Virus record (IMG/VR): IMGVR_UViG_3300045988_164636
Span: 32,001 to 96,000 of that record
Reading direction: 5' to 3' (one strand)
DNA: 64,000 nucleotides
From: a virus
Below are positions 1-64,000 of this stretch, piece after piece; the stretch's first letter is position 1; each line of letters begins with the position of its first letter. The translations under genes were made by a program, and so were the position numbers. The notes under the pieces were generated by a model. The model was given only the letters and a program-made list of their open reading frames with translations. It made no database searches and was not told the origin of the DNA.

Positions 1-21
1 AAGAGAAAGGAAATTAAAAAT

Positions 22-444
22 ATGAGGTTATGGCATACGGATTTAATATCTGTTCTTCCAAAGGAACAGCTTGTAGGTCAATGGAGAGAACTTTCCGCAA
101 TAGCAGGTTCAATTAAGCAGAAAGGTACTCCCAACCATCTTCTTGTTAATTTTGTAATGGATTATGATTTAGACCATTTTATTAATTATGCTCGTATGAT
201 AAGAGCGGAAATGACAAAAAGAGGATACAGAACTGCTAATTCTGTTTGGGAAAAGATAGCTTCTCTAAAAGAAGATTATACTCTTATAAAAGACAAAGAA
301 GTTTATCCTGATATTATGAATAGTCAATATCTTTCAATTTGTTATGAAAATCTTCTGGAAAAATTCATTAGAGGTGGCATATCAGAAGAGGATATGAACA
401 ATATAGAAGAAGTTTTTAAAGAAGCATTTGAAGTAAATATGTAA
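22..444 (+). CDS. pyrimidine-dimer DNA glycosylase / endonuclease V-like (DenV family) protein
   Basis: 140-aa ORF. The opening MRLWHTDLISVLPKEQLVGQWRE matches my memory of the MRLWH..LI..LP..QLLGQ.RE start of the Pyr_excise family. Confidence 0.55.
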   Translation: MRLWHTDLISVLPKEQLVGQWRELSAIAGSIKQKGTPNHLLVNFVMDYDLDHFINYARMIRAEMTKRGYRTANSVWEKIASLKEDYTLIKDKEVYPDIMNSQYLSICYENLLEKFIRGGISEEDMNNIEEVFKEAFEVNM

Positions 445-454
445 AAAAAATCAT

Positions 455-483
455 TTGAAAAAATAAAAAATTTTTGTTATAAT
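455..483 (+). promoter_or_regulatory. sigma-70-type promoter: TTGAAA, 17-bp spacer, TGtTATAAT (extended -10)
   Basis: TTGAAA at 455-460 and TATAAT at 478-483 with TG at -15/-14. It lies in a ~45-nt block repeated almost exactly at 1196-1240. Confidence 0.6.
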
Positions 484-512
484 ATATATACAATAAAGAA
501 AGGAAATAAAAA

Positions 513-746
513 ATGCAGACGATTTATAAGATGAAGTTAAATACAATTAATGATGTTAAGTCTTTTGTCGATGCGGCAAATGAATATAAGGGAAGAATTA
601 CTGTCCGCAATATGCACTACGCTGTAGACGGAAAGTCAATCATGGGAATTTTTTCAATTGATTTGTCGGGTATTCTTGATGTAGAATTTGATAATGAACC
701 CAGTAATGAAATACTTGATTTATTTAAGAGTTGGAGAGTTAAGTGA
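513..746 (+). CDS. HPr-like phosphocarrier-domain protein
   Basis: 77-aa ORF with an aaaggaaat RBS. The segment VDGKSIMGIFSIDLSG resembles the conserved (A/D)KSImg..sL.. core of the PTS HPr family. Confidence 0.45.
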   Translation: MQTIYKMKLNTINDVKSFVDAANEYKGRITVRNMHYAVDGKSIMGIFSIDLSGILDVEFDNEPSNEILDLFKSWRVK

Positions 747-1198
747 AGGAAGTTCATATTTTAATAGGAATCCCCGCAAGTGGTAAATCTACTTTTGCTA
801 AAAATTTTGTTTTCTCTCATAAAGGGTACAAAATTGTATCAACAGATGATATAAGATGGAAGTTATTTGGAGATGCAAGTATACAGGGAAATCCTAAGAT
901 GATTTTTGCTATTGCTCACAAAGAAATTATGTCTTATTTAGATAAAGGATATAATGTTATATTTGACGCAACAAATATATCAAGAAAAAATCGAGTAAAT
1001 CTTATTAATTTTTTAAAAGAATGTGAAGTAGAAAATGTTGTGGCGGATTATTTTCCTGTTACAATAGATGTTGCTCTTGAGAGAAATCAGCAAAGAAAAA
1101 GACACGTTCCAGAAAAAGTTATTCATAAGATGTTTGGCAAAATTGAGAAGCCTAAATATGAGGAAGGATTTTCAGAAATAAATTGCCACAACGATTAA
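743..1198 (+). CDS. P-loop kinase, polynucleotide-kinase-like (AAA_33 type)
   Basis: Walker A GIPASGKST, then STDDIR, FDATN and a lid-like ERNQQRKRHVP. The layout resembles the kinase domains of T4 Pnk and Clostridium thermocellum Pnkp. GTG start overlaps the upstream stop. Confidence 0.55.
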   Translation: MKEVHILIGIPASGKSTFAKNFVFSHKGYKIVSTDDIRWKLFGDASIQGNPKMIFAIAHKEIMSYLDKGYNVIFDATNISRKNRVNLINFLKECEVENVVADYFPVTIDVALERNQQRKRHVPEKVIHKMFGKIEKPKYEEGFSEINCHND

Positions 1199-1199
1199 T

Positions 1200-3281: not shown

Positions 3282-3325
3282 AAAAAATGCGGAATGATAA
3301 TATAAAAATCATTCCGCATTTTTTA
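3282..3325. terminator. rho-independent terminator ending the tRNA region (A-tract, hairpin, T-tract; potentially bidirectional)
   Basis: Stem gcggaatga (3289-3297) / tcattccgc (3309-3317), flanked by aaaaaat and attttttt. Confidence 0.75.
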
Positions 3326-3623: not shown

Positions 3624-3624
3624 A

Positions 3625-20489: not shown

Positions 20490-20565
20490 ATGGGTAATTT
20501 TAATTTATTTCTTTAAGATTACTTTTATATATAATTGTGAAATAAATTAAAAAAGGAGCTTTCCT

Positions 20566-21753
20566 ATGAAAAAATTTTATGATACCTGTAGTCTTTTAGA
20601 TCTACAGGAAAAGGCTTTTGAGGAAGATTTTTATATTAGTATTATTACTTTAAGAGAATTAGAAAATATAAAAACCTCTGCAAATAAAGATGCGGAAACC
20701 AAATACAAAGCCAGAAAATTGTCTAAACTTTTACAAAAATATGCAGATAAATATGAAGTAATTTTAGACCAAACTAATGATATAATTACCGCAGATGATA
20801 GAATAATATCTGCCGCACAGTCAGTGGAATGTCAATTTGTAACCAAAGATATGTGTTGTTGGAATTTAGCAAAAGCCAAACATTTAAATATGGATTTTAT
20901 AATTGATAACACTATTGATGGTTATACTGGTTTCAAAGAAATATTTGTTCCAACAGAAGAAAATTTAGCTTATTTTTATGAGCATATGAATGAAAACATT
21001 TTTGATTTATTACGGAATGAATATTTAATCATAAAAACTGCGGAAGATGGTAAGATTGGTCCATATATTTGGACAGGAACAGAATATCAAGAAATTGGGT
21101 ATCCTAATTTTTGTTCAGAACAGTTTGGAAAAATAAAACCAAAAGATGAATATCAACTTGCTGCGATGGATTGTCTTAGCCGCAATCAAATAAGTATGGT
21201 AAGAGGCGGCGCCGGAACAGGCAAATCATTTCTATCTTTAGCTTATTTATTTCATCTTTTAGAGGAAGGTCAAATAGATAAAATCATTGTCTTTTGTAAT
21301 ACTATAGCTACAATTGGATCCGCTAAGCTTGGATATTACCCCGGAAGCAAGGATGAGAAGCTTTTAGACTCTCAAATTGGTAATATCTTGACCAGTAAAT
21401 TAGGTGATAGTTTTGCTGTTGAACAAATGATTGAATCTGGAAAATTACTTTTATTACCATTTTCTGATTTAAGAGGTTTTGATACAACAGGTATGAGAGC
21501 AGGAGTTTATATAACAGAAGCTCAGAATCTTGATATTAATCTTATGAAGCTGGCATTACAAAGAATTGGTGATGATTGTATTTGTATTTTAGATGGTGAT
21601 TCAGATACTCAGGTTGATGATTCTAATTATGCAGGTATTAATAATGGTATGAGAAGAACTTCTGAAATTTTCAGAGGTCATGATATATATGGAGAAGTTA
21701 CACTTCAAAGAGTTTATCGAAGCAAAATTGCGGAAATAGCTGAGCAAATGTAG
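20566..21753 (+). CDS. phoH: PIN-domain / PhoH-like ATPase
   Basis: N-terminal PIN-like region (FYDTCSLLD...). Walker A GGAGTGKS is followed by PhoH-type motifs. Confidence 0.75.
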   Translation: MKKFYDTCSLLDLQEKAFEEDFYISIITLRELENIKTSANKDAETKYKARKLSKLLQKYADKYEVILDQTNDIITADDRIISAAQSVECQFVTKDMCCWNLAKAKHLNMDFIIDNTIDGYTGFKEIFVPTEENLAYFYEHMNENIFDLLRNEYLIIKTAEDGKIGPYIWTGTEYQEIGYPNFCSEQFGKIKPKDEYQLAAMDCLSRNQISMVRGGAGTGKSFLSLAYLFHLLEEGQIDKIIVFCNTIATIGSAKLGYYPGSKDEKLLDSQIGNILTSKLGDSFAVEQMIESGKLLLLPFSDLRGFDTTGMRAGVYITEAQNLDINLMKLALQRIGDDCICILDGDSDTQVDDSNYAGINNGMRRTSEIFRGHDIYGEVTLQRVYRSKIAEIAEQM

Positions 21754-21764
21754 GAAAGGAAAAA

Positions 21765-22241
21765 ATGTTAAAACCAGCAATTTTATATAAAAAAGAAATT
21801 GAACAGAATATCTTAAATTTAGCTTATAGTGATGAAATGTTTCTATTTACTGGAACTTTAAAATATATTATCCCCGATTTTGAAGATAATAATGGATCTT
21901 TATATCAATATGCAATTCTTGATAAAGATAAAATTATAGGATATTTTACTTATTATATTGACTGGTATATTTCAAGTGTTAGTAATTTTGGACTAATTGC
22001 TTTTGAAAAAGATAACTCGAATATAGGTATAAATATTTATAGAGAAATCAAGAGGATAATTAATGAATATCATATTCATCGGATAGAATGGCGTATGGTA
22101 GGAAATAATCCAGTTGAAAAACATTATAATAAATTTTGTAAAAAATACAATGGAAATAAATATATTTTGAAAGATGCGTTAAGAGATAAACAAGGGCTTT
22201 ATCATGATGATGTAATTTATGAAATAGTTTTTAATAATTAA
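21765..22241 (+). CDS. hypothetical protein, possibly GNAT-fold
   Basis: 158 aa. The IHRIEWRMVGNNPVEKHYNKFCKKYNG segment resembles the GNAT C-terminal core. Evidence is weak. Confidence 0.35.
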   Translation: MLKPAILYKKEIEQNILNLAYSDEMFLFTGTLKYIIPDFEDNNGSLYQYAILDKDKIIGYFTYYIDWYISSVSNFGLIAFEKDNSNIGINIYREIKRIINEYHIHRIEWRMVGNNPVEKHYNKFCKKYNGNKYILKDALRDKQGLYHDDVIYEIVFNN

Positions 22242-25394: not shown

Positions 25395-25793
25395 GATTCA
25401 GATGGGCTAGATATTGAACTTCTTCTAGTTACATTCTTCTTTACCTACATGAGACCACTTGTAGAAGCTGGTAAATTATATAGAGCGGTAACCCCTCTTT
25501 ATATAATCAAAAATGGTAAAGAAAAAGTATATATATATTCAGAAGATGAGTTTACAGATTGGAAGACCAGACATGGTAACCCTACCGAGATATTACGAGC
25601 GAAGGGTCTAGGAGAGTTAGACGCAACCGTACTTCACGAGGTATGTTTCGAGAACCAAAGATTTAGGCGAATTACGATTTCAGATGTAGACCAAGCGGCC
25701 GCACTTCTTGATACATTACAGGGTAAAGCAGTTGAACCTCGTAAAAAGTATATTTATGAAAATGCGGAACATTTAGGATTTAATTTTGATTAA
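25395..25793 (+). CDS. gyrB: type IIA topoisomerase subunit B, exon 2
   Basis: An open frame with no start codon begins at DSDGLDIELLLVTFFFTYMRPLVEAGKLYRAVTPLY. This is the conserved GyrB TOPRIM/tail segment and is in frame with exon 1. Confidence 0.8.
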   Translation, partial: DSDGLDIELLLVTFFFTYMRPLVEAGKLYRAVTPLYIIKNGKEKVYIYSEDEFTDWKTRHGNPTEILRAKGLGELDATVLHEVCFENQRFRRITISDVDQAAALLDTLQGKAVEPRKKYIYENAEHLGFNFD

Positions 25794-25806
25794 TGGAGGC
25801 GTATAA

Positions 25807-37077: not shown

Positions 37078-37560
37078 ATGGCTCACGCTGTAAAATGTGT
37101 TTATTGCGGAGAAATTTTTGATAGAGATAGAGAAATATGTGTAGAAGTATCTCCAAGAAGATACGCTCACGCCACTTGCGATAAACAAGGAATTGAAGAT
37201 TTAAAAGAACTTGAAGAATATATAAAAAAGATATTTTGTGAAACCACAGTAAATGCGAAGATAAAGAAACAGATAAATGATTTTAGAAAAGATTATGGGT
37301 ATACTTATAGTGGTATATTAAAATGTTTAAAATGGTGGTTTGAAATTCAAGGTAATACAATAGATAAAGCAATGGGCGGAATTGGTATTGTACCTTATAT
37401 TTATAAAGAAGTAGAAAAATACTATTATTCTATTTATATTGCTCAAGAAAAAAATCAGAATAAAGAATTAAATAATCAAGTAATTGAAGTAGTAGTATCT
37501 CCTCCCGCAAGAGATGAGAAAAAAAGATTATTTAATATTGAGGTGGAAGATAGTGACTAA
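37078..37560 (+). CDS. zinc-finger protein (possible replication organiser/helicase loader)
   Basis: CVYCGE...HATC. The call also rests on its position upstream of the dnaB-like gene. Confidence 0.35.
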   Translation: MAHAVKCVYCGEIFDRDREICVEVSPRRYAHATCDKQGIEDLKELEEYIKKIFCETTVNAKIKKQINDFRKDYGYTYSGILKCLKWWFEIQGNTIDKAMGGIGIVPYIYKEVEKYYYSIYIAQEKNQNKELNNQVIEVVVSPPARDEKKRLFNIEVEDSD

Positions 37561-39082: not shown

Positions 39083-40166
39083 AGATTTAATAAAACAGGG
39101 GCTTACAATAGAAAATATAGAGGATTTTGTAAATAATTATGGTGGAGAAGCAATAAGAAAAGATGATGTTCTTATTTGCCGCACAATCTGTCATAATAAT
39201 ATTGGTGAAGGTCATCATAAATTATATTATTATGATAATTCTCATTTATTTAAATGTTATACAGGATGTGAAAATGATACTTTTGATATTTTTGAATTAA
39301 TTATCAAAATAAAAGAACATCAAGGTATACAATTATCTCTGCCACAAGCAATATATGAAATTTGTAATTACTTTAATCTTTCTTTTGAAGAAGAAATACC
39401 GGAAGAAATTTCAAAAGATTTAAAAGACGACTGGACACTTTTACAAAAATATGATAATTTATATACCCCAAAAGAAGAAAAAATTATACAATTAAAAGGG
39501 TATGATGATTCTATTATTAAAAATTATCCTCAGCCTACAATTTTATCTTGGCAAGAAGAGGGTATAAAAAAAGAAGTGTGTGATTATCATAATATTAGAT
39601 ATGATCCTTGTAATTGTGGAATTATTATTCCTCATTATGATATAAATAATAATTTAGTCGGAATAAGAGAAAGGACATTAATTAAAGAAAATGAGCAGTA
39701 TGGTAAATATCGTCCTGCAATTTTTAAAGGAGTTATGTATAATCATGCTCTTGGCTACAATTTATATAATTTAAATTGGAGCAAAAATAATATTAAAGCT
39801 TTACAAAAGGCTCTCGTATTAGAAGGAGAAAAAGGATGTCTTCAATTAGCCTCTTATCTTGGTAGAGATGTAGATTTCTCTGTTGCTGTGTGCGGAAGTG
39901 CATTACTATCTTATCAAGTTGAATTACTTCTGAAGTGTGGAGTAAAAGAAATTATTATTGGTTTTGATAAACAATTTGAAGATGTTAATTCAGATGAAGG
40001 AAAGAAATGGATAAAAAAATTGAAAGATATAAACAAGAAATATTGTAATTTTGTTAATATATCTTTTTTGTTTGATAAAGATAACTTATTACCTTATAAA
40101 GCTTCTCCAACAGATAAGGGAATAGAAATATTTATGAAGTTATTTAATGAAAGGATTTTTCTATAA
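39075..40166 (+). CDS. dnaG: DNA primase (DnaG-like: zinc finger plus TOPRIM)
   Basis: CRTICHNN...HKLYYYDNSHLFKCYTGC zinc-binding region and TOPRIM VLEGEKG. TTG start after tagggagaagg. Confidence 0.7.
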   Translation: MNKDLIKQGLTIENIEDFVNNYGGEAIRKDDVLICRTICHNNIGEGHHKLYYYDNSHLFKCYTGCENDTFDIFELIIKIKEHQGIQLSLPQAIYEICNYFNLSFEEEIPEEISKDLKDDWTLLQKYDNLYTPKEEKIIQLKGYDDSIIKNYPQPTILSWQEEGIKKEVCDYHNIRYDPCNCGIIIPHYDINNNLVGIRERTLIKENEQYGKYRPAIFKGVMYNHALGYNLYNLNWSKNNIKALQKALVLEGEKGCLQLASYLGRDVDFSVAVCGSALLSYQVELLLKCGVKEIIIGFDKQFEDVNSDEGKKWIKKLKDINKKYCNFVNISFLFDKDNLLPYKASPTDKGIEIFMKLFNERIFL

Positions 40167-43978: not shown

Positions 43979-44761
43979 ATGACTTATATGGGAAGTAAAA
44001 GAAAATATTGTAAATATATTGTTCCAATTATTCAGAAATATATTGATGAACATAATATTACGGTTTTTGCTGATGTCTTTTGTGGAGGAGCAAATTTAAC
44101 AGATAAAATTCAATGTTAAAAAGTAATTGGTAATGATTTATCTCCAACTTTAATTGCTTTACATCAAACTGCACAGAAAGACTTTTCTAAAATTCCAACG
44201 GATGGAAGTAGAGAATATTGGGATAAAGCATATACTGAATACAAAAAAATTAAATCTGCTATGGATAAGGGAGAAGAATATCAGCCAGAAATGCCATTGT
44301 TTGAAATAGGTGCAATTGAATGGTATGCAAGCTTTTCTAATGGCGGATTTCCACGAGGTTATGCTAAAAATACTCAAACTCGTAATTATTATCAAGAAGG
44401 TTGGCGGAATCACAAAAAACAGCTTGAAAATCCTTTGTATAAAAATATTAATTTTATACAAGGTAACTATAAAGATATTTTATCTAATTTAGATAGCATT
44501 GACCTTAGTCATACACTTTTCTATTGTGACAGCCCTTATAAAGGAACAAAAAATCCTAAATTTAATCATGAAGAATATTATAATTGGTTAAGAGAAACAA
44601 GTAAATATGTTCCAATTTTTATTAGCGAACAGATAATGCCAGAAGACTTTTCTATTCTTTGGGAAAAAGAAGCAAAAAGAACAGCTGGAAAAGATAATAA
44701 TTTTAAAGCTTATGAAAGACTTTATTTTATAGATAATAGAAAGGATATTAATAATGGATAA
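43979..44761 (+). pseudogene. dam: Dam-like (D12 class) N6-adenine DNA methyltransferase interrupted by one in-frame TAA (44117-44119)
   Basis: YMGSKRK, motif I FCGGAN, then ...KIQC-TAA-KVIGNDLSP..., and motif IV CDSPY all lie in one frame. No other stop occurs between 43979 and 44761. Confidence 0.7.
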
Positions 44762-45422
44762 CAGAAAATCGCATTACAATAAGAAGGGTTTATATATGGG
44801 ATATGATAAAAATCATAAAGAGAGAGAAGCTCTTGATTATTATGCCACAGATCCAAAAGAAGTAAAAAATATATTAGATGTTTTAAAAATAAAAGATATT
44901 GATAAATCAATTATTTTAGAACCCTGTGCAGGTGGGGGACATATGCTTTATGCAATACTCAATTATTTGAATAATAATTATAATACTTATTTTACACCTC
45001 TTGCAACAGATGTTCAGAAAAGAGAATTATTTGATGAGCATTTAGAAATTTCAACTGGAAAAGAATTTGACTTTTTATCTGATGATTATCCTTATACAGA
45101 AAATATAGATTATATTATTATGAATCCGCCTTATTCAGTTATTCAACCTTTTGTTATGAAATCTCTAGAGATTGCAAATAAGGGTGTACTAATATTGGGT
45201 AGACTTCAGTTTTTAGAAGGAGGTAAAAGATATGAAAGTATTTTTAAAGAAAATCCGCCAACAGATATATATGTATATGTAGATAGAATAAATTGCTATA
45301 AAAATGGAGATTTTAGTCGAGGCTCTGGACAACAAGCTTATGCTTGGTATTATTGGGATTTTACGAAAAAAGAACAAAATAAAATTGAAACTCATTTTAT
45401 AAGAAGAGCAGATAAAAAATGA
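44754..45422 (+). CDS. N6-adenine DNA methyltransferase (NPPY type)
   Basis: Motif I ILEPCAGGGHM and motif IV IIMNPPYS. Confidence 0.7.
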   Translation: MDNRKSHYNKKGLYMGYDKNHKEREALDYYATDPKEVKNILDVLKIKDIDKSIILEPCAGGGHMLYAILNYLNNNYNTYFTPLATDVQKRELFDEHLEISTGKEFDFLSDDYPYTENIDYIIMNPPYSVIQPFVMKSLEIANKGVLILGRLQFLEGGKRYESIFKENPPTDIYVYVDRINCYKNGDFSRGSGQQAYAWYYWDFTKKEQNKIETHFIRRADKK

Positions 45423-45476: not shown

Positions 45477-48400
45477 ATGGAATACTTATCTCGTTTTGAG
45501 CCACACAGTCATACAACTTTTAGTAATATCCGATTACTTGATTGTATAAATTCGCCAGAAGCTCTTATAGATAGGGCGGTACAATTAGGTCTGAATGGAA
45601 TTGCAATAACAGACCATGAAAGCTTAGGTAGTGCAGTTATAATTAAGAAATATGAGAAGATTATTCAAGAAAGTAATCCTAATTTTAAGGTTGCTATTGG
45701 AGATGAAATTTACTTAACAAAAGATAGAAGAAATGGACAGAAATATTACCATTTTATTTTAATTGCAAAAAATGAAATAGGTTTTAGAGCTTTAAAAGAG
45801 ATTTCTTCTAAAGCGTGGTTAAATGGTTATACTGATAGAAGAATGTTCAGAGTTCCTATTACTTATGATGAATTAGAAAAAATAATTAAAAAGTTTCCTA
45901 ATTCAATTATGGCGACTACAGCTTGTTTAGGTGGACAGACTTCCTCAAAGTTATCTGAGCTAATTCAGGCAGAAAAGGCAGGAGATGAAGCAACTGCCGC
46001 AATTATTCACAATGAATTAGTAGACTTTATTTTATGGTGTAAAGAATTATTTGGAGAAGATTTTTATATTGAATGTGCGCCTGGTTGTTCCCATGAACAA
46101 ATTGAAGTAAATAAAAGATTAAAATCTCTTGCAGATTGTTTTAATTTGCCAATGGTTATAGGCACAGACGCCCACTTCCTTAAGAAAGAGGACAGATATG
46201 TTCATAAAGCATATTTAACTTCAAAGCCCGGAGATGGCAACAGAGAAGTAGATGCATTCTATGAATATGCTTATTTACAATCTAATGAAGAAATTATCAA
46301 TCATTTAAGTCAGTCAAATTTTTTAAGACAAGAAGTCTTACAGATGTTTGATAATAGTATAAAAATGTATGATAAGATTAAGAATTATGACATATTTAAA
46401 ACGCAGCAAATTCCGCCTGTGCCAGTTAAAGATTATCCCAAAACAGATTGGTTTAAAAATGAAGAGTTTGATTATCCAAATTTAAAAAATATGTTTACTT
46501 CTGATAATAAAGTTGAACGAAATTGGGTTAATCAATGTTGGACTGCTCTTAATGAAAAAATAGGTAATTGGAAAGAACATCGTAATTATGTAGAAGAATT
46601 AGAAGAAGAAGCAAGAGTAAAGAAGGTTATCAGTGGTAAGCTTCACAACAATATGTTTCAATATCCTATAACACTTCAATATTATATTGATATGATTTGG
46701 GAATGTGGAAGTACAATTGGTGCAGGAAGAGGATCTGCCTGTGCTGCATTAAATCATTATCTACTTGGAATTACTCAGCTAGATCCAGTAGAATATAATC
46801 TACCTTTTTTCCGTTATCTCAACGATGAACGTGAAGAACTTGGTGATATAGATATAGATTTAGCTCCTTCTAAAAGACCGACAATTATAAAGAAAATAAA
46901 AAATGAAAGACGACAGTATTTAAATCAAGATTTAGATGAAGAATTTTTAAAAGAATTAGGAGCTACTTTTGTAGCAACATATGGAACAGAAAATACCAAA
47001 TCTGCAATATTAGCTGGTTGTCGAGGATATAGAAGTGAAGATTATCCCGAAGGCATTATGCCAGAAGATGCACAATATTTATCTTCATTAATTCCAGTTG
47101 AAAGAGGTTTTAACTGGACATTAAAAGATGCTTATTACGGAAATAAAGAAAAAGGAAGATATTATGTCAAATTGTTTAGGGCGGAAATGGATAATTATCC
47201 TAGACTATTAGAAATAATTTCAGGTATTGAAAATATCATTAAGTCAAGAGGTATTCATGCTTCTGGAGTAGTATTTTTTGACGGAGATCCTTTTGAAACA
47301 ACTGCTTTTATGCGGGCACCAAGTGGTGAAGTAGTAACACAGTTTGATTTGCATGATGTAGAATACTGTGGCGGAACTAAATTCGATTTTCTTTTAACTA
47401 AGATACAAGATAAAATAACTACGTTTATAAATTTACTTCAGAAAGAAAAAATTATTGAAGAAGGTTCTTTAAGAGAAATTTATAATAAATATTTTCATCC
47501 CAGTAAACTTCCTCTCGACCGAGATAAGATTTGGACAGCAATCGAAAACAACGAGGTTCTTGATTTGTTTCAATTCGACTCGGATGTCGGCCGTCAAGCG
47601 GCTAAAAAAATTAAGCCTAAAACAATTATGGAATTATCAGATGCTAATGGACTTCTCCGCTTAATGCCAGAAGAAAAAAATGCAGAAACACCATTGGATA
47701 AGTATGTTAGATATAAAAATAACATTGGTCTTTGGTATAAAGAAATGGCAGATAATGGATTAACTAATGAGGAAATAAAATATATTGAGCCTTATTTTAA
47801 ATCGTCTTATGGTGTTCCACCTAGTCAAGAGCAAATGATGCTAATGCTAATGGATCCACATATATGTAATTTTACATTGAAAGCGGCAAATGCGGCACGC
47901 AAGATAGTAGCGAAGAAACAAATGGACAAAATACCAGAATTAAAGGAAAAAATTGAAAAGCAAGCCCTTTCTCCTAGTCTAGGTAAATACATATGGATGT
48001 ACGGTGTAACTCCCCAGCTAGGTTATTCATTTAGCGTCATACATGCGCTCGCATACTCGTTTATAGGCGTACAATGTGCATATTCCGCAACAAACTGGAA
48101 TCCTATTTTTTGGAATACCGCTTGTCTTATTGTGAATACAGATTCACTTGAAACAGATGATTGGGATGCAGAAGATGAAGATGAAGTAGTTGAAGTAAAA
48201 GAGAAAGCAAAAGATTATGGTAAATTAGCAACTGCAATTGGAGCAATTCGCTCAAGAGGTATAAAATTAAGTTTAATTGATATTAATAATTCAGATTATA
48301 CTTTTATTCCAGATGTTAAGAATAATGAGATTCTTTTTGGATTAAAAGGATGTAATAAGATTAATAACAATGTTATTGAACAAATTAAAGCGGGAAGACC

Positions 48401-49445
48401 TTATTCTAGTATAAAAGATTTTATGGTGAGATGTCCATTATCTAAACCTATTATGGTTTCACTTATTAAAGCAGGAGCATTTGATAAACTTGATTATGAG
48501 TGGGCTAGGAAAATTTGTTCAGAACCTCGTATTGCAATTATGGCTTACTATATTTCAATAATTAGTGAACCAAAAACTAATTTAACATTGCAGAACTTTA
48601 CGAGTTTAATGAAATATCATTTAATTCCAGATGAACTTGCAGAAACAAAGAAATTATTTGAATTTAACAAATATATAAAACAACTTAGTAAGAAAACAAA
48701 AGAATACTATATATTAGATAATGCAGCTTATAATTATTATAAGAAGTTTTATGATGAAGAATTACTTGAATCTTTTAATAATTCAATTTGTATAAAACAA
48801 AAAACTTGGGATAAGATTTATTCTTATGAAATGGATAAAGTAAGAGAATGGCTTAAAGAAAATAAAACACAAATTTTACAGCAGTTAAATAGCATATTGT
48901 TTAAACAAACTTGGGAAAAATATGCAAATAAAAATATTTCCGCTTGGGAAATGGAATCATTATGTTTCTATTATCATGATCATGAATTAGCTAATATTGA
49001 TTTTGAAAAATATGGTATTAGCGATTTTAACAATCTTAATGATAGAGAAATTAGTAGTTATTTTAAAAGAAATGGAAGAGAGATTCCGCTTTATAAAATA
49101 TCTACAATTGTTGGAACAGTTATTGCTAAAAATGATACAAAAGCAACAATTAATTTATTAACACCTACTGGTGTTGTTCCAGTAAAATTCGGCAAAGAGT
49201 ATTATTCAATGTTTAAAAAGAGAATTTCTCGTCTAAATCCAGAAACAAATAAAAAGCAAATAGTTGAAGAAGGATGGTTTAAAAAAGGTACTTTATTAAT
49301 GATTAATGGTTATCGCAGAGATGATACTTTTGTTAGTAAAACTTATAAGAACACCAATGCTCATCAGTTGTATAAGATTGTAAATGTTAAAGGACGAGAT
49401 ATTATTTTAACTCACGAAAGAGAAAAAGGAGAAGAAGATGAATAA
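45477..49445 (+). CDS. dnaE: DNA polymerase III alpha subunit (DnaE-type, with PHP domain)
   Basis: PHP FEPHSHTTFS...ITDHESL, palm/fingers GAGRGSACAALNHYLLGITQLDP, DIDIDL, GIHASGVV. Confidence 0.85.
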   Translation: MEYLSRFEPHSHTTFSNIRLLDCINSPEALIDRAVQLGLNGIAITDHESLGSAVIIKKYEKIIQESNPNFKVAIGDEIYLTKDRRNGQKYYHFILIAKNEIGFRALKEISSKAWLNGYTDRRMFRVPITYDELEKIIKKFPNSIMATTACLGGQTSSKLSELIQAEKAGDEATAAIIHNELVDFILWCKELFGEDFYIECAPGCSHEQIEVNKRLKSLADCFNLPMVIGTDAHFLKKEDRYVHKAYLTSKPGDGNREVDAFYEYAYLQSNEEIINHLSQSNFLRQEVLQMFDNSIKMYDKIKNYDIFKTQQIPPVPVKDYPKTDWFKNEEFDYPNLKNMFTSDNKVERNWVNQCWTALNEKIGNWKEHRNYVEELEEEARVKKVISGKLHNNMFQYPITLQYYIDMIWECGSTIGAGRGSACAALNHYLLGITQLDPVEYNLPFFRYLNDEREELGDIDIDLAPSKRPTIIKKIKNERRQYLNQDLDEEFLKELGATFVATYGTENTKSAILAGCRGYRSEDYPEGIMPEDAQYLSSLIPVERGFNWTLKDAYYGNKEKGRYYVKLFRAEMDNYPRLLEIISGIENIIKSRGIHASGVVFFDGDPFETTAFMRAPSGEVVTQFDLHDVEYCGGTKFDFLLTKIQDKITTFINLLQKEKIIEEGSLREIYNKYFHPSKLPLDRDKIWTAIENNEVLDLFQFDSDVGRQAAKKIKPKTIMELSDANGLLRLMPEEKNAETPLDKYVRYKNNIGLWYKEMADNGLTNEEIKYIEPYFKSSYGVPPSQEQMMLMLMDPHICNFTLKAANAARKIVAKKQMDKIPELKEKIEKQALSPSLGKYIWMYGVTPQLGYSFSVIHALAYSFIGVQCAYSATNWNPIFWNTACLIVNTDSLETDDWDAEDEDEVVEVKEKAKDYGKLATAIGAIRSRGIKLSLIDINNSDYTFIPDVKNNEILFGLKGCNKINNNVIEQIKAGRPYSSIKDFMVRCPLSKPIMVSLIKAGAFDKLDYEWARKICSEPRIAIMAYYISIISEPKTNLTLQNFTSLMKYHLIPDELAETKKLFEFNKYIKQLSKKTKEYYILDNAAYNYYKKFYDEELLESFNNSICIKQKTWDKIYSYEMDKVREWLKENKTQILQQLNSILFKQTWEKYANKNISAWEMESLCFYYHDHELANIDFEKYGISDFNNLNDREISSYFKRNGREIPLYKISTIVGTVIAKNDTKATINLLTPTGVVPVKFGKEYYSMFKKRISRLNPETNKKQIVEEGWFKKGTLLMINGYRRDDTFVSKTYKNTNAHQLYKIVNVKGRDIILTHEREKGEEDE

Positions 49446-51519: not shown

Positions 51520-52808
51520 TCAATCTAAAGAGCCTTATATTACTTAACCAATTTAAAATATTGGGGTCACAAGGGTGGCTAACGGGGAAAGCTAAGTTAA
51601 AAATATGCCAATCCCGTGGGAGGTTATTAAAAATGAATAGACATAATCATAAGAAAAAAGATATTTATATTATAAAAAATGATATTAACAATAAGGTTTA
51701 TATAGGACAAACTGTTAACCCTAAACAAAGATGGGAACAATATTGCTCTTTAGTAAAACATAAACCGAATACCCAAGTTATTACTAAAGCAATGAAAAAA
51801 TATGGTATTGAACATTTTACTATGTCAATCTTAGAAAATGATGTTGTAAATTATGATGAGAGGGAAAAATATTGGATACAAAAATATAATAGTCTTGTTC
51901 CAAATGGCTATAATGTAGCTATCGGTGGAGATGGAATAGGAAGTGGAGTTAATAATCCAATAGCAAAAGTAAAAAGTGAAGATGTTTTAATGGAATTAAT
52001 TGATGAAATAATTCAAAATGTTTTGCCTTTTAAAATTTTAGCAAAAAAATATGATTTATCTGAGGGACAAATTTCAGAAATTAATAGGGGAAAGGCATAT
52101 TATAATTCAGAATTAAGCTATCCTCTGCGACAATCAAGATACACAGAAGAAAAAATTAAACAATTAACATATTCTTTAAAATATGAACTTGATAAAAGTT
52201 TAAAACAAATAGCGAAAGAATATGAGATTGATTTATCTTATCTTAATGACATCAACCAAGGCAGAGTTTGGTATAGGAGCTATATAAATTACCCTATAAG
52301 ATTAGGAAAAATGAAAAAAGCTGAAATTATTCATCCTCAAATAAAAGAATTATTAAAAAACTCAACTCTCTCTCAAAAAGAAATCGCAAAAAAATTCAAT
52401 ATAAGTCAAATGGTGGTTAGTGAAATTAATCAAGGGAAAAAAGGATATGATAAAAACATTGATTATCCTATTAGAAAAAATTATCAAAAGGAAAGAAAAG
52501 AAACTACTTTATCTCCAGACATAATTGATGAAATTTGCAATATCATATTAAATACCAATCTTTCATTAAAAGAAATTTCAAAAAAATACGAAGTTTCATA
52601 TGCTACTATTCAGAATATAAATAGTGGAAAAGTAATAAAATATCGCAATGAAAAAAAATATAAATATCCTTTAAGAGATAATAGAAAATAACTGCCTGTA
52701 TCGACTATTCGTGGATAACGAAGTAGGTAAAATACCAAAAGAGTAATAGCATTAACAAGGGTTAGTGTTAAAAGATAGTCAGTACCATTAGAAATAATGG
52801 ATAATATG
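51520..52808 (+). mobile_element. group I intron 1 in nrdD (1289 nt) with a GIY-YIG homing-endonuclease ORF
   Basis: The 5' exon ends in U (ggt) and the intron ends in G (atg). It shares gctaacggggaaa, aatcccgtgg, ctgtatcgactat and agatagtcag with the gyrB intron. Splicing restores NTVG-FLGLYEV (compare E. coli LGYIGIHE). Confidence 0.8.
51633..52691 (+). CDS. GIY-YIG homing endonuclease with four tandem HTH-like DNA-binding repeats
   Basis: IYIIKNDINNKVYIGQTVNPKQRWEQY. Four repeats fit the pattern L..IAKKY.(I/L)S...(I/V)S.IN.G......YP(L/I)R. ATG 51633 follows gggagg. Confidence 0.8.
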   Translation: MNRHNHKKKDIYIIKNDINNKVYIGQTVNPKQRWEQYCSLVKHKPNTQVITKAMKKYGIEHFTMSILENDVVNYDEREKYWIQKYNSLVPNGYNVAIGGDGIGSGVNNPIAKVKSEDVLMELIDEIIQNVLPFKILAKKYDLSEGQISEINRGKAYYNSELSYPLRQSRYTEEKIKQLTYSLKYELDKSLKQIAKEYEIDLSYLNDINQGRVWYRSYINYPIRLGKMKKAEIIHPQIKELLKNSTLSQKEIAKKFNISQMVVSEINQGKKGYDKNIDYPIRKNYQKERKETTLSPDIIDEICNIILNTNLSLKEISKKYEVSYATIQNINSGKVIKYRNEKKYKYPLRDNRK

Positions 52809-52988: not shown

Positions 52989-54203
52989 AAAAAATCTGGG
53001 GCTAAATAAATTAAAACTTATTTAGAAAATTCTCTCTAATTGACTTGGAACGCCCCATCGGGGTGGACAGGGCGGAAGGAGTTTTTCCACCGTGAACGAC
53101 TAAATGAGAGAACACCTGAAAAAGGTGATGCGATAGTCTGAGCTCTACCATATAAAGAAAGTAGAGAATGAAATTTAACGATTTCATCGCCATACAATAA
53201 ATACCACTCATTTGAAGAGTATAAAAAGAAAGGAAAACTATGAAAAATATTATTAAAAATGCCAGTGGCAAGCCCATTGGAACGGTTGAATTGACAGCAA
53301 ACACAATAAAAATAATGAATGATACTAAACCCGTTTTAGAAATTCAAAATTCTAACTTAGCTCAACAAATTATAAATAAAGATAATAGCCCAGAAATTTT
53401 AAAGATACTATATGATAATTATTTTTTATCTGCCGGAGAAATTGCAGCTTTATATGAAGTTTGTTATTCTAATATGAACAAACAACTTAAATCAGTTAGT
53501 TTAGAAACAAGTGCTAAACAGGGACGAAGAAATAGATCCTACGGGAAACCTCAGTCCGAAGAATGCTTAAGAAAAAAATCTGAAACAATGAAAAGAAAAG
53601 TTGCTAATGGCGAATATACTCCTCCAAATTATGAAAGAACGCCTGAAATAAAAGAAAAGATTTCTCGTGGACTAAAAGAATATTATAAAAATCATCCTCA
53701 AGATCCAACTCCTCATATAAATAATTGGAAAAAAGGAGTTTATGATAATGTAGATTTTCATATAAGTATTGGTGGGAAAATGTTTTCTATAAAAAATCAA
53801 AAAACATATAATTTTAGAAGTTTATTAGAATTATATTATATGTTGTTACTCGAAGATTCAACAGAAGTAGAATTTTATGAATATGAGCCTATACATATTA
53901 ATTGTGAAAATGGACATATATATACACCAGATATTCTAATTAATAATACAACTTTAATAGAATTAAAGTCATACAAATATATTCATAGTAAAGACGAAAT
54001 TTTAAATTCCTTTAATTATAAAAAAGAACAGGCTGAAAAATATTGTAAAAATACAGAAATGCAATATAAAGTAGTATTTGATATTGATATTGATTTTGAT
54101 TCTTCTCGATATAAAAGAGAACTAAAAAATCATCCTGAAATTATTGAAAAATATCACATTATTTTCAATCAGCCAGAACGTATGGTCATAAAGTAACAGA
54201 TTG
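52989..54203 (+). mobile_element. group I intron 2 in nrdD (1215 nt) with a 3'-located endonuclease ORF
   Basis: The 5' exon ends in U (cct) and the intron ends in G (ttg). The core precedes the ORF (ccccatcgggg hairpin; acgactaaa / gcgatagtct P7-like pair). Splicing gives LESVP-GESAAVKLAAKD (compare E. coli YGTPSESL). Confidence 0.75.
53240..54196 (+). CDS. intron-encoded endonuclease: NUMOD3-like motifs plus a C-terminal PD-(D/E)xK-like domain
   Basis: GRRNRSYGKPQSEECLRKKSETMK resembles NUMOD3. YTPDILI...LIELK gives a candidate D...E.K nuclease motif. RBS is aaagaaaggaaaac. Confidence 0.55.
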   Translation: MKNIIKNASGKPIGTVELTANTIKIMNDTKPVLEIQNSNLAQQIINKDNSPEILKILYDNYFLSAGEIAALYEVCYSNMNKQLKSVSLETSAKQGRRNRSYGKPQSEECLRKKSETMKRKVANGEYTPPNYERTPEIKEKISRGLKEYYKNHPQDPTPHINNWKKGVYDNVDFHISIGGKMFSIKNQKTYNFRSLLELYYMLLLEDSTEVEFYEYEPIHINCENGHIYTPDILINNTTLIELKSYKYIHSKDEILNSFNYKKEQAEKYCKNTEMQYKVVFDIDIDFDSSRYKRELKNHPEIIEKYHIIFNQPERMVIK

Positions 54204-56290: not shown

Positions 56291-56705
56291 GCTTTTAGAT
56301 GAAAATGCTAAAATTCCTTTTAGAGGCAGTGATATGGCGGCAGGTTATGATTTATATAGTGCTGAAGAAGCAATAATCCCTGCAGGAGACTGTAGATTAA
56401 TATCTACTGGAATTGCTCTTGAAATACCTAATAATTATTTTGGAGGTATTTTCCCTCGTAGTGGAACTGCGGTAAAGCGAGGTCTGAGATTAGCAAATTG
56501 CGTAGGTATTATTGATGCAGACTACCGGGGAGAGGTTAAGGTACCGCTTTATAACGATAGCTCTGTTCCACAAAAGATAGAGTTGAATGAACGTATAGCT
56601 CAATTAATTATTTTACCTTTTGCAACAATTGAATATGAAGTAGTAAATGAATTATCTGATACTGAGCGTGGCGAGGGCGGATTTAATTCAACAGGTAGAA
56701 AATAA
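56280..56705 (+). CDS. dut: dUTPase
   Basis: Start at ATG 56280 (MKIKLLDENAKIPFRGSDMAAGYDLYS). Motifs PRSG, GIIDADYRGE and ERGEGGFNSTG. Confidence 0.85.
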   Translation: MKIKLLDENAKIPFRGSDMAAGYDLYSAEEAIIPAGDCRLISTGIALEIPNNYFGGIFPRSGTAVKRGLRLANCVGIIDADYRGEVKVPLYNDSSVPQKIELNERIAQLIILPFATIEYEVVNELSDTERGEGGFNSTGRK

Positions 56706-56707
56706 AA

Positions 56708-56742
56708 ATATGCGGAGAATAAAAATCTCCGCATATTTTTTT
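56708..56742 (+). terminator. rho-independent terminator
   Basis: Stem atatgcggaga / tctccgcatat, followed by ttttttt. Confidence 0.8.
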
Positions 56743-61150: not shown

Positions 61151-61320
61151 TTTTTTATCACTCCTTTCGCTCTCACTTATTATTAAAAAATAGCTGGTAA
61201 TATTTTTCTTACTTTTACCAATTTTTGGAAATTTATTAAATTGTAAATTTTAATAGAAAAGTAACGATAGAAGTATCATTTTTATTTTTATTAATTATTA
61301 ATTGCTAACAAAAACAGATA

Positions 61321-61355
61321 AAAAAAATAGGAGTACATATAAATGTACTCCTTAT
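61321..61355 (-). terminator. rho-independent terminator (hairpin symmetric, flanked by A and T runs)
   Basis: Stem aggagtacat / atgtactcct. On the minus strand it is followed by tattttttttt. Confidence 0.75.
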
Positions 61356-61363
61356 TTTTATTA

Positions 61364-63412
61364 TTATCTTCTTTGAATTACTCTTTTTGCAGTAATTGAC
61401 ATTGTTCCGCCCAAATCCATGGGTATAGTCATACTATTAATTACATACTCTCCACTAATTAAACTTTCTTCATCTTCAACAGTAATAATCATATTTGGTT
61501 CTAAATAATATATTGGTAAACATTGCAACGTAATGCTCTCATTATAATTAGTATATTCATAGATTAAATCTTTCATTAAGTTATATGCAGAATTAAGAGT
61601 TCCGCCTAGAATTGTATTTATTTCTATTAAATTGTTTTTATCTTTATCTAATAATGAGGATACATTTAAATATTTTTGTCCTCTATCTTGACACCATTTA
61701 ATCTCTTCTGTAGTATAACAAAATACATAGTCTTCGATTATAGGTTCAAAAATACAATTTACCTTATCATCAGATACTACTTTCGTCATTCTCCCTATTG
61801 TTGAAACACTTATATTATTATATGCTTCTCCTTTTTCAATGAAATCTAAAAAATAATCTATATTAGAACATTGTTCTATAGACTTTTCTTTAAATCTGCC
61901 TTTTATAACATCATAGATTTTTGTCCATTCATTAACAAGTTCTGTATAATAATAGTTACTATCTGTCGCATATCTTTCCGATAAACAACCTTGAATATAT
62001 AATTCTGTCCGCCAATCTTTAATAGCTATATCTTTATAAATTTTCAGATTGGTATCATTGTTATCTTTATCTATTGTTTTCCAAGAATTATCTTCCCAAT
62101 AGCTATATTCATCTAAATCTTTGGTATGATAAATCATTCCGGGATACCCTTGTAAAGGTCTGTTACTATGAGTATTAATTTCAATAGGTGGTTTAATTAA
62201 AGTTGTTGTTTCATATATTTCTTTATCTTTATCTACTAATTGAGTATAATCCCATTGAACAAAATCGCAAGTTTTTCGAAGCGGTGGTTTTTTATCTAAA
62301 GTTAAATGATACCTAATTGGAACTTCTTTATCTGCTGCAGTTTTTCTCTTGCCCCATACAATAAAATCATTTTTTACCATATCATATTGTGGAGTATTTT
62401 GATATGAAACAATTAAATTACTATTATCAAAATTATATGCACTATAGACCGTAGAAGGTGTAGTATTATATTGAATTTGTTCTAAATTTTGAGTAGATGC
62501 TTTTGTAGTATTATAGTAATTCTTTTTTTCTTGAAAATGGAAATATCCTTGCGTATCAAAAAAATATTCATAATTACCAAGTTTATTTTTTATTTTATCA
62601 AGAATTGTGCAAACATTATCTCCTTGATTGGCAGTCAGTTCTTCATCATAATAAAAGTTTGTATAATGAAAACCAATATCATCTCCTTCATAGAAGATTT
62701 TTTCCCAAGTATCAAGTAATTCCGCATCATTATCAACCATCATTACTTGATTAGTAGAATAATTCACACAAAGTTTCTTTGAACTATTATTCCACCTTAG
62801 TACTTCTTTAGCAATAGTATCAATATCTTTAATAATAATTTTCTCTAATGGTATATTTCCAAAATGATTTACAACTTCTTGAATAATTTGATAAATAGGA
62901 ATTTTTTTTGTTTCTATATCGCCAGAAGGTGTTATTTCATCAACTTTATCAAATATACAATAGGCGGGAAGAATACCTCCACGACTACCATTTAATAAAC
63001 ACATTTTATCTTGTAAAGATAAACTAATTGAAACACCATTTGTACCTCTGCTAATATTAGGATTAATAATAATAAAAATACCAAGAGGAAACCAAATTAT
63101 TTTTTCTTCTTGATATTTAGCTGTACGATTAGCATACCCAATAAATATTTTTATTCTTTTATTTATAGATAGTAAATTACTTGTTTCCATAACATTTCTA
63201 TATTTATCATCTGCAATCATATTTAAAGTACAAGTGCGGCGGACGGAGGAATCTCCATTTATAGATAAAGTTCCGCCGCTTGTAACATATCCTTGAATTT
63301 CTTCAAGTTCATATTCGTTTTGATCTAATACAATAATTCTTATGTACTGCTCTTTTTCCGACATTTCGTCTAATTCTCTTAAAAAATTTTTATCATTTAA
63401 ATAGTTATTCAT
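61364..63412 (-). CDS. large baseplate/tail structural protein
   Basis: 682 aa. The N-terminal part (IQGYVTSGGTLSINGDSSVRRTCTLNM) resembles tail/baseplate hub-type proteins. No enzymatic motif was recognised. Confidence 0.5.
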   Translation of the reverse strand: MNNYLNDKNFLRELDEMSEKEQYIRIIVLDQNEYELEEIQGYVTSGGTLSINGDSSVRRTCTLNMIADDKYRNVMETSNLLSINKRIKIFIGYANRTAKYQEEKIIWFPLGIFIIINPNISRGTNGVSISLSLQDKMCLLNGSRGGILPAYCIFDKVDEITPSGDIETKKIPIYQIIQEVVNHFGNIPLEKIIIKDIDTIAKEVLRWNNSSKKLCVNYSTNQVMMVDNDAELLDTWEKIFYEGDDIGFHYTNFYYDEELTANQGDNVCTILDKIKNKLGNYEYFFDTQGYFHFQEKKNYYNTTKASTQNLEQIQYNTTPSTVYSAYNFDNSNLIVSYQNTPQYDMVKNDFIVWGKRKTAADKEVPIRYHLTLDKKPPLRKTCDFVQWDYTQLVDKDKEIYETTTLIKPPIEINTHSNRPLQGYPGMIYHTKDLDEYSYWEDNSWKTIDKDNNDTNLKIYKDIAIKDWRTELYIQGCLSERYATDSNYYYTELVNEWTKIYDVIKGRFKEKSIEQCSNIDYFLDFIEKGEAYNNISVSTIGRMTKVVSDDKVNCIFEPIIEDYVFCYTTEEIKWCQDRGQKYLNVSSLLDKDKNNLIEINTILGGTLNSAYNLMKDLIYEYTNYNESITLQCLPIYYLEPNMIITVEDEESLISGEYVINSMTIPMDLGGTMSITAKRVIQRR

Positions 63413-63416
63413 ATTA

Positions 63417-63965
63417 TCAATCCTCCACCCATATTAAATAAAGTATTAATTGATTATCTTTATCTTTTTCTAATTCTTTAGTTAATACAGAAGTAGCATT
63501 ATAATTACTAATTAATTGATTATCTTTAAAAGTAAGTGCAGAATTAGCCGCCTTAAGAATATATTCAAAATGACCTTTAATTTCATCTGTCTTTAACACA
63601 TTATACTTATTATAATTTTCAATAGTATCTTCTGCAATTTCTGTGGCTGTTGCGGAAAAGCTATATATTCTACGACTTAAAGTCTTATTTGGGGTTAAAG
63701 AAATATTCGTTAATTTTACAAGAATATTACCTTCTGTTAATGTTCTTAATAATTTAACATTATTTGCATATAAAATATCTATAACTTTATCCCTAAAGTA
63801 TTTTTCATATATATAATTATTTACATTAGGTTGGATATTATATTGTTTTATAAAATTATTATAACATTCTTCTCCCACTTTACTTTTAATAATATCTTCT
63901 GAATATAATATATTCTTAGAAATTTCTTCAATAAGAATATTTTCTTGAGATTTATTATGTATCAT
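63417..63965 (-). CDS. hypothetical structural protein
   Basis: 182-aa ORF immediately upstream of the 682-aa gene. Confidence 0.45.
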   Translation of the reverse strand: MIHNKSQENILIEEISKNILYSEDIIKSKVGEECYNNFIKQYNIQPNVNNYIYEKYFRDKVIDILYANNVKLLRTLTEGNILVKLTNISLTPNKTLSRRIYSFSATATEIAEDTIENYNKYNVLKTDEIKGHFEYILKAANSALTFKDNQLISNYNATSVLTKELEKDKDNQLILYLIWVED

Positions 63966-64000
63966 TACACTATTATTAAAAATGCCAACTGAATTATCAT

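Follow-up and report, generated by a model that had tools for sequence, protein, structure and literature searches.

Short over-represented oriented words in genomes, such as Chi, the FtsK-orienting polar sequences (KOPS) and uptake sequences, have in every case led to a machine that processes DNA. The subject of the present study, a field of GCGG/CCGC words covering a 64,000-nt stretch of viral DNA (positions 32,001 to 96,000 of the IMG/VR record IMGVR_UViG_3300045988_164636; this whole stretch is referred to as the window, and its first letter is position 1), belongs to this known class of over-represented oriented genomic words. No prior description of a GCGG/CCGC enrichment was found in the literature.

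Among the closest described systems, the Chi of the host is strongly over-represented in some phages (PMC3784561), and in staphylococci the helicase-nuclease AddAB together with Chi bounds the acquisition of CRISPR spacers (PMC8860600). Primase sites are short and oriented as well. The primase of phage T7 reads the site 5'-(G/T)2GTC-3', and the T7 genome of about 37 kb holds 177 such pentanucleotides, one per approximately 209 nt, few of which fire (PMC12839067). The primase of M. tuberculosis recognizes the triplet 5'-GC(G/C)-3' (PMC12839067), and that of Aquifex uses triplets composed of C and G only (PMC2532735). Here we describe a GCGG/CCGC excess that is real and resides at the level of the DNA, and an ordering of the words into convergent pairs.

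Excess of GCGG/CCGC in the window and in related phages

In the 64 kb of the window GCGG occurs 155 times and CCGC 142 times, and these 297 words, which have a mean spacing of 215 bp across positions 1 to 64,000 and are distributed roughly equally between the strands, compare with 62.5 expected from base composition (4.75-fold). A maximal-order Markov model, in which trinucleotides are kept, predicts 140 words (z 13.3), and by this measure the word ranks first among all tetramers. When synonymous codons were permuted inside each gene, a shuffle that keeps protein sequence and codon usage, 114.0 +/- 8.4 words were obtained for the 78 open reading frames (ORFs) as compared to 283 observed (z 20.1); the pentamer TGCGG/CCGCA occurs 151 times in the same ORFs and 43.8 times after the shuffle (z 19.6). 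The excess extends to the non-coding DNA of the window (14 words, 4.7 expected) and to the 10 kb upstream of it in two sister contigs (55 and 45 words, about 10 expected). Other words of G and C only, GGCC, GCGC and CGCG, are strongly under-represented (5, 9 and 4 copies), and CpG dinucleotides elsewhere are depleted to 0.23-0.64 of expectation in eight contexts and stand at 1.06 in CCGG. Within GCGG/CCGC, CpG reaches 4.75 of expectation, and 297 of the 939 CpGs of the window (32%) fall in the word.

A preliminary description of the window, which had been made by a model from the letters alone, had claimed that GCGG/CCGC is far commoner than other G/C-rich words; the top rank among tetramers and the 297 words against 62.5 bear this out, and its estimate of about 30% guanine plus cytosine (GC) agrees with the 29.7% measured. 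Its hand counts were reproduced for 20521-21780 (8 words, 4 GCGG and 4 CCGC, with TGCGG/CCGCA exactly at 20691, 20789, 20813, 21039, 21180 and 21729) and for 3601-4200 (5 words); in 12531-15272 the exact count is 12 and not 11. GGCC and CGCG, said to be almost absent, do not occur at all in these three stretches. It had further proposed counting k-mers against shuffled sequences, and neither the codon-preserving null nor the Markov null reproduces the observed count.

The word is made by synonymous codon choice, as the preliminary description had supposed. Before G, 26% of alanines are written as GCG; before A, C or T the share is 4-5%. Similar shifts were measured for TGC and GGC before GG (69% vs 23% elsewhere and 55% vs 24%), TCC before GC (33% vs 5%), CCG before C (26% vs about 5%), CGC after C (28% vs about 3%) and CGG after G (12% vs about 2%). 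Codon choice is thus shifted at every synonymous position of the word, and therefore every frame and both strands are affected. On the coding strand, 169 GCGG and 114 CCGC face 80 and 34 under the codon null (+89 and +80), and the excess per potential site is equal on both strands, in agreement with the earlier statement that the word occurs on both strands regardless of gene orientation. An orientation skew, which had been suggested as something to look for, was not found: the word shows no polarity along the 64 kb. Codon or codon-pair bias and protein constraint were rejected as its cause, since the excess survives the codon shuffle and is present in all frames, on the template strand and in intergenic DNA.

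The enrichment is shared by related phages, a comparison which had likewise been proposed. At 45 IMG/VR loci found with the DnaE-type polymerase (44-98% identity) the word stands at 1.6-5.1 times the expectation from base composition and ranks first in most, and in further subclades, found with GyrA, the helicase or a small protein, it reaches 1.8-3.3-fold; ratios of 2-3.5 were likewise obtained in further subclades. Gut phages of approximately 120-200 kb with an SPbeta-like replication module form a large clade in which the enrichment is a heritable trait. The cultured AT-rich Firmicute phages K, c-st, EF1 and SPbeta, which include the two nearest relatives, show no enrichment (ratios 1.0, 0.3, 1.0 and 0.8), and a generic trait of AT-rich Firmicute phages is thereby ruled out. 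A common flank rule applies in every subclade: A is disfavoured at position -1 (0.44-0.66-fold) and T or G favoured, and at +1 C is favoured and T disfavoured. The word is therefore best described as B-GCGG-V (B, any base but A; V, any base but T), with TGCGG/CCGCA as its strongest form (158 copies in the window vs 53 of AGCGG/CCGCT; GAAGCGG occurs 4 times).

It appears highly improbable that the excess is a trivial by-product of restriction avoidance (of GCGC, CGCG, GGCC, GCWGC and CAGC), codon or codon-pair bias, transfer RNA (tRNA) genes or G/C clamps of hairpins. The window does avoid GGCC, GCGC, CGCG, GATC (0.35-fold), CCWGG, GATATC, GAATTC, GCWGC, GTCTC and CAGC/GCTG, and its Ala-Ala pairs are shifted from GCWGC to GCSGC, which makes up part of the GCSGC excess. 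However, palindrome or restriction avoidance was rejected as the cause, as relatives that have GCGC and CGCG at two to three times expectation retain GCGG as the top tetramer (in the group L017-L045, GCGC and CGCG reach 2-2.8-fold and GGCC about 1.2-fold, yet GCGG stands at 3.3-3.7-fold with ranks 1-4), and as contexts without a competing avoided word, such as TGC before GG, are equally shifted. The excess is also unaffected by masking of the tRNA genes, and it survives the codon shuffle, is seen on the template strand and extends to every frame. The word resembles restriction-site avoidance by phages, which is seen in the same genome and also operates via synonymous choice, but it is an enrichment of a non-palindromic word and is found in relatives without avoidance. 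The relatives L005, L006, L013 and L024 avoid GATC, GGCC and CCGG and not GCGC/CGCG, and the group with 46% DnaE identity avoids none of these; restriction avoidance differs by lineage, and therefore host restriction repertoires are likely to differ inside the clade.

Ordering of the words into convergent pairs

The words are, in addition, ordered with respect to each other, a property which is absent from the preliminary description and is predicted by no known system. At distances of 8-100 nt, GCGG followed by CCGC (convergent) forms 60 pairs in the window (1.88-fold) and CCGC followed by GCGG (divergent) 19 pairs (0.59-fold; convergent vs divergent, p 4e-6), and there are 38 same-orientation pairs (0.60-fold; direct pairs of all other tetramers, 0.94-1.40). 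The preference for convergent pairs recurs in 33 divergent relatives (373 convergent vs 247 divergent pairs, 1.43-fold vs 0.95-fold; p 5e-7), whereas the depletions are not repeated in distant relatives (same-orientation 1.12, divergent 0.95). The asymmetry is unique among 120 non-palindromic tetramer pairs (|z| 8.8, next 3.2), and phages of about 55 kb from the same metagenome display no asymmetry between convergent and divergent pairs. The convergent bias is gone beyond approximately 100 nt; the pairs are spaced over a broad range (4-100 nt) in which helical phasing is not evident, and distances of 4 and 7 are the commonest convergent spacings in the clade.

Several sources of this ordering were considered and rejected. 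Protein sequence does not provide it, as potential-site pairs number 616 vs 578 and convergent pairs make up a fraction of 0.25 under the null compared to 0.63 observed, and masking the tRNA genes, whose acceptor stems might form such pairs, changes nothing. Hairpins contribute at short range: stems of at least 7 bp are formed by about 24% of the convergent pairs at 8-30 nt (control 8%), and these include two strong terminators. The preliminary description had noted the word in these terminator stems (3289-3317 and 56711-56735), and both hairpins are indeed strong and closed by TGCGG...CCGCA (Table 1). Such real hairpins lend some weight to G/C clamping as an origin of the word, but they cover at most a few dozen of the approximately 170-235 excess words, and as a general explanation of the ordering they account only for pairs up to 30 nt apart: at separations of 31-100 nt the pairs are not unusually complementary, yet show a convergent bias of about 3:1. 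The DNA 3' of an oriented GCGG is slightly richer in G/C for about 100 nt, and within convergent intervals no motif was found to be enriched, the GC content being only slightly higher.

Retention of the word and its candidate readers

Comparison of the window to a 94.3%-identical relative revealed that 159 of 198 aligned words are shared, and that synonymous G/C positions differ in 17% of cases within the word as compared to 28% at the remaining G/C (p 8e-4) and to 49% at CpGs outside the word (p 2e-13). A haplotype-aware population test at synonymous third positions was carried out on 14-18 genomes with 94-98% identity from the subclade with 46% DnaE identity (L017-L045, L080-L092 and L160-L176), using three regions of about 24 kb. 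Of the singletons among single-nucleotide polymorphisms (SNPs), 80% create the G/C allele at ordinary G/C SNPs, 88% at other CpGs and 65% at GCGG-forming SNPs, and the standing occupancies of the G/C allele are 18%, 11% and 42%, respectively. The site allele is the major one at 41% of the synonymous SNPs that toggle GCGG and at 23% of those in other CpGs (p 6e-5). The input of singleton losses per site is ordinary (0.11 vs 0.11-0.12), and the input of gains for GCGG is at most about 1.5 times higher. An earlier SNP test with loose controls had given no signal (37% vs 35%). From these data we conclude, with the caveat that the genomes are metagenome-assembled, come from one subclade and were read with rare alleles taken as derived, that the excess is sustained mainly by fixation or retention, by way of selection or biased conversion, and not by mutational input. 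Together with its persistence under the codon and Markov nulls, in all frames, on both strands, in intergenic DNA and across the clade, this retention supports the earlier claim of a DNA-level motif that is independent of protein.

As a separate observation, new G/C alleles in this subclade, and CpGs above all, arise often and seldom reach high frequency (80-88% of singleton transitions vs about 11-18% occupancy), a sign that fixation in these phages is strongly biased toward A/T.

Fixation bias is indistinguishable from biased conversion in these data, and the word might thus have no function at all: biased repair, gene conversion or context-specific mutation by the DnaE replisome of the clade would drive near-cognate words to GCGG/CCGC or, in a variant of this idea, would exempt the GCGG/CCGC context from whatever purges G/C and CpG. 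A strand-symmetric and frame-independent excess, equal per potential site on both strands, would be expected from such a process, as would its restriction to a clade that shares its replication module, the lack of the word in recently arrived mobile ORFs (see below), a gain input raised perhaps 1.5-fold and the very fast turnover of CpG elsewhere (49% differing). We nevertheless consider it unlikely. All four positions of the word are tuned, transversions included (GCT|G to GCG|G, TCA|GC to TCC|GC), while T:G repair of the very-short-patch type would act at a single position; no depletion is seen for the words one transition away, GTGG, GCAG and ACGG (1.06, 0.97 and 0.89 of the null); the rates of singleton losses are not unusual; a search of the window and of the 10 kb upstream of it gave no Vsr-like or cytosine-methylase gene; and the convergent pairs are left unexplained. 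Very-short-patch repair linked to Dcm in E. coli reportedly causes word biases, as described by Bhagwat and McClelland and by Merkl et al., both in 1992. The present case would resemble that bias as a repair-driven, strand-symmetric distortion of tetramers or pentamers in which the word itself is functionless, but it differs in that all positions and transversions are tuned, neighbours are undepleted and the effect is much larger.

The preferential retention of the word makes it probable that some enzyme reads it; given the constancy of word and flanks across the clade, this reader would be conserved in the clade and is therefore most likely encoded by the phage. The primase of the phage adjoins DnaB and combines a Toprim region with a zinc-ribbon pattern (C-x3-C-H...C-x3-C) at its N-terminus; it is the only sequence-specific reader of single strands evident in the replication module. 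Our leading candidate, proposed tentatively and by analogy to described primases, is this YorJ-type zinc-finger primase, which would read the word as a priming or recognition word; we regard this as possible though far from assured. A clade-conserved factor would accordingly act on single-stranded DNA in an orientation-dependent manner: together with the DnaB helicase, the primase would copy the template 5'-CCGC-M-3' (M, A or C) into the primer pppGCGG, a purine-started tetranucleotide, with one cryptic 3' base. Selection would have raised the density of sites so that forks travelling in either direction can prime, and at convergent pairs within about 100 nt a template site might be met by each of two helicase-primase complexes as they move out of a small bubble or D-loop.

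CCGCM occurs 117 and 125 times on the two strands where 15.6 are expected, which corresponds to one per approximately 530 nt instead of one per approximately 4.1 kb per strand by chance. CCGC followed by A or C, with CCGCA as the most enriched pentamer, fits the format of the T7 site by analogy, although the flank could equally reflect coding constraints. The likeness to T7 and DnaG primase sites would comprise an oriented word read on single strands, four copied bases plus one 3' base, a purine-started primer, a zinc-finger primase of the DnaG type beside DnaB, and many sites of which few would be used. If the word were a priming signal, this would be the first genome reshaped to supply the sites of its own primase, and would explain how a phage rich in A and T can live with a primase specific for G/C.

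A number of points weigh against the primase as reader. The strength of enrichment is uncorrelated with the presence of the primase, and no comparative signal links primase and word; similarly, the presence or absence of genes near DnaE showed no credible association with enrichment strength, in a comparison that phylogeny and the truncation of loci confound. In SPbeta a homologue of YorJ is present, yet the word is not enriched. Known bacterial primases read only trinucleotides (PMC2978363), and our literature search returned no published genome-wide enrichment of a priming site. A lagging-strand signal would predict a strand bias, and with respect to the orientation of genes the word shows none. 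That same-orientation and divergent pairs are depleted in the window (0.60 and 0.59) is not predicted, nor is it repeated in distant relatives. The GCGG core shared with the Chi sites of Bacillus and Staphylococcus would be a coincidence, and the population test is bounded by the single subclade and the reading of rare alleles as derived.

This shared core leads to the reading given in the preliminary description, a Chi-like site for the AddAB or RexAB of the host, which we regard as doubtful. Read on the 3'-ended strand, the word would turn the helicase-nuclease from degradation to protection and recombination, and words in both orientations everywhere would shield randomly permuted ends, rolling-circle tails and breaks and would reduce the supply of DNA for the acquisition of CRISPR spacers. 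Both known Bacillales Chi sites, AGCGG and GAAGCGG, have GCGG as their core (bioRxiv 10.1101/2021.07.08.451572), and a short Chi of the B. subtilis type implies a high density of sites, as is found here. The nearest cultured relatives infect Firmicutes, bins of metagenome-assembled genomes (MAGs) that contain contigs of the clade are low-GC Bacilli or Clostridia, and the evidence of selection is equally compatible with Chi. Like the Chi of Firmicutes and the Chi over-represented in some lambdoid phages and P1, the word is short, non-palindromic and over-represented, at a density near that of a 5-mer Chi; a benefit to the phage by protection of DNA ends and reduced CRISPR adaptation is plausible, and phages that enrich Chi provide a precedent.

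What did not hold is the correspondence in detail. The known Firmicute forms are not the enriched form, since a 5' A is the least favoured base in all subclades and GAAGCGG is rare. The enrichment is strand-symmetric, without orientation polarity over 64 kb, whereas Chi is polar in phages and hosts; a circularly permuted genome could, however, still need both orientations. The phage has Sak4-like, RecJ-like, Dda-like and RuvC-like functions of its own, a class that avoids Chi in lambdoid phages (PMC3784561), and phages K, SPbeta, EF1 and c-st are not enriched. In addition, the same word and flank rule are conserved deep in the clade, across subclades whose restriction-avoidance profiles imply different hosts, and the convergent ordering is not predicted by Chi. 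If the word were Chi nonetheless, the Chi of an uncultured lineage of Firmicutes would have been defined with nothing but phage data, and the word would point to a Chi-rich strategy against AddAB and CRISPR adaptation in large phages of the virulent type.

A further alternative to the primase is recognition of double-stranded DNA by a binding or modifying protein encoded by the clade, with the word as a mark of 'self' or an organiser of the nucleoid or of packaging; an asymmetric protein would bind B-GCGG-V and meet a head-to-head partner within about 100 bp. The strand symmetry and clade specificity of the enrichment would fit such a protein, as would the conserved flank rule, which suggests a site of about 6 bp, and the pair statistics of the window (convergent 1.9-fold, other arrangements about 0.6-fold within about 100 bp) resemble cooperative and exclusive binding. 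It is, however, decidedly unlikely in our estimation: no candidate protein was found in the approximately 74 kb (window plus 10 kb upstream) of the roughly 121-kb genome over which genes were inspected, the broad pair spacing lacks helical phasing, and the depletion of other arrangements is not repeated in distant relatives. A modification mark, the other suggestion of the preliminary description, is unsupported in the window. The two methyltransferase-like ORFs there were rejected as writers, as they have the NPPY and DSPY motifs of amino-methylases and are thus adenine-type, GCGG contains no adenine, and both are lineage-specific, occurring in only 0 and 2 of 28 enriched relatives (absent from 26-28 of 28).

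In more general terms it might be speculated, though we hold this to be rather unlikely, that oriented B-GCGG-V words in convergent pairs within about 100 bp constitute a hitherto undescribed genome-wide signal of the clade, read by a phage-encoded primase-helicase or DNA-binding protein. Such a signal would license the initiation of replication or recombination, or mark the phage's own DNA, anywhere in a CpG-poor, AT-rich genome, and would be a phage-intrinsic counterpart of Chi or uptake sequences and not the mimicry of a host signal. Independently of its reader, a four-base word holds a third of the CpGs of the genome and is kept through biased fixation throughout a clade of large gut phages that is abundant and uncultured.

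Genome, gene content and mobile ORFs

The window is 91% coding under the standard code. An IMG/VR relative contig of 121,473 bp with 94-95% identity wraps around it, and therefore the genome is estimated at about 121 kb; further copies of the genome are found on metagenomic contigs of 119-127 kb. By DnaE, the nearest cultured relatives (about 38% identity) are phages of Enterococcus and SPbeta of Bacillus. The phage is a large one from the animal or human gut, with a host of the low-GC Gram-positive type. No host could be named from the MAG bins with clade contigs, which are taxonomically inconsistent, and the top GyrA homologues examined for this purpose were all from phages (120 of 120). Homologues of the lysin were rejected as a route to the host, as they lead to the prophage host on a 45% GC Clostridia contig without enrichment (GCGG Markov z -0.4), which is probably not the host. 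On a bacterial contig with a lysin homologue (L049:12984-19657), a prophage lysis module is followed by a three-gene pPIWI_RE module, related to prokaryotic Argonaute, and an integrase, which is unrelated to the GCGG finding.

Genes of the window encode GyrB and GyrA, an NAD-dependent ligase, RNase H, a DnaB-type helicase, the YorJ-like primase and the DnaE-type, YorL-like polymerase, as well as a RecJ-like exonuclease, a Dda/RecD-like helicase, an annealing protein of the Sak4 type and a RuvC-like resolvase. Also present are genes for NrdD and NrdG, dUTPase, tail-fibre proteins, a GH25 lysin and seven tRNAs, together with several ORFs of homing endonucleases. Of the two methyltransferase-like ORFs (Table 1), the first (166 amino acids) carries DSPY and is Dam-like, and the second (222 amino acids) carries EPCAGGG and NPPY and matches phrog_799 (E 1e-44).

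Table 1. Positions of the word field, selected word pairs and genes discussed in the text (dG, folding free energy; E, E value)
Feature	Position in the window	Strand	Remarks
Field of 297 GCGG/CCGC words	1..64000	155 on +, 142 on -	Preferred context B-GCGG-V; strongest 5-mer TGCGG/CCGCA
Bidirectional terminator hairpin closed by TGCGG...CCGCA	3282..3324		Convergent pair 25 nt apart; dG -21.2/-22.4 kcal/mol, z -8.5/-7.2
PhoH-like gene, example stretch of the preliminary description	20521..21780	+	8 words, 6 of them TGCGG/CCGCA
GCGGCCGC, tightest convergent pair (distance 4)	25695..25702		
DnaB-type replicative helicase, partner of the primase	37514..39082	+	
YorJ-like DNA primase	39075..40166	+	phrog_47 E 2e-34; NF006382 E 6e-80; Toprim-region match to TIGR01391
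Two adjacent amino-methyltransferase-like ORFs, directly upstream of DnaE	44261..45422	+	DSPY; NPPY
DnaE-type polymerase (YorL-like)	45477..49445	+	Marker defining the clade with shared enrichment
GIY-YIG homing-endonuclease ORF inside nrdD	51561..52691	+	0 words vs 5.5 expected
TnsA/endonuclease-I-like ORF inside nrdD	53240..54196	+	0 words vs 4.6 expected
Bidirectional terminator hairpin closed by TGCGG...CCGCA	56704..56740		Convergent pair 17 nt apart; dG -19.5/-20.9 kcal/mol, z -8.2/-9.1

The only genes significantly devoid of the word are the two endonuclease ORFs in nrdD (Table 1), and with zero words in both, mobile DNA therefore lacks the mark. The word is thus a practical marker that distinguishes resident from recently acquired DNA, such as these homing-endonuclease ORFs, and could aid in assigning metagenomic contigs to a host or clade. 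The gene nrdD is split into an N-terminal part at 50221-51528 and a C-terminal part at 54201-54674, and both inserted ORFs have a GC content of 26%. Further ORFs of the homing-endonuclease type, with LAGLIDADG, GIY-YIG and I-TevI-like DNA-binding domains, are located at 35175-36044, 31228-32190 and 59091-59891. Unlike the nrdD pair, the GIY-YIG ORF at 31228-32190 is dense in words (8.3 per kb) and may be an old resident.

The gyrB region (22831-28176) comprises GyrB (22831-24366, ending in a partial Toprim match), a GIY-YIG ORF (24547-25302), a 114-amino-acid ORF (25449-25793) and GyrA (25807-28176), and a mobile endonuclease may interrupt gyrB as well. A GyrA homologue of 1190 amino acids (P0225) bears domains of the LAGLIDADG/intein type. 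The tRNA genes (Lys, Glu, Arg, Asn, Thr, Gly and Gln) form a cluster at 1601-2993, and the first ORF of the window (22-444) encodes a pyrimidine-dimer glycosylase similar to T4 endonuclease V (PF03013, according to the precomputed annotation of an identical protein).

In the subclade with 46% DnaE identity (e.g., L018:3806-5572 and L018:14564-16849), coverage by stop-free ORFs rises from 0.83 to 0.95 when TAG is read as sense (0.84 with TGA as sense) and split ORFs fuse, which suggests that TAG is recoded in these phages.

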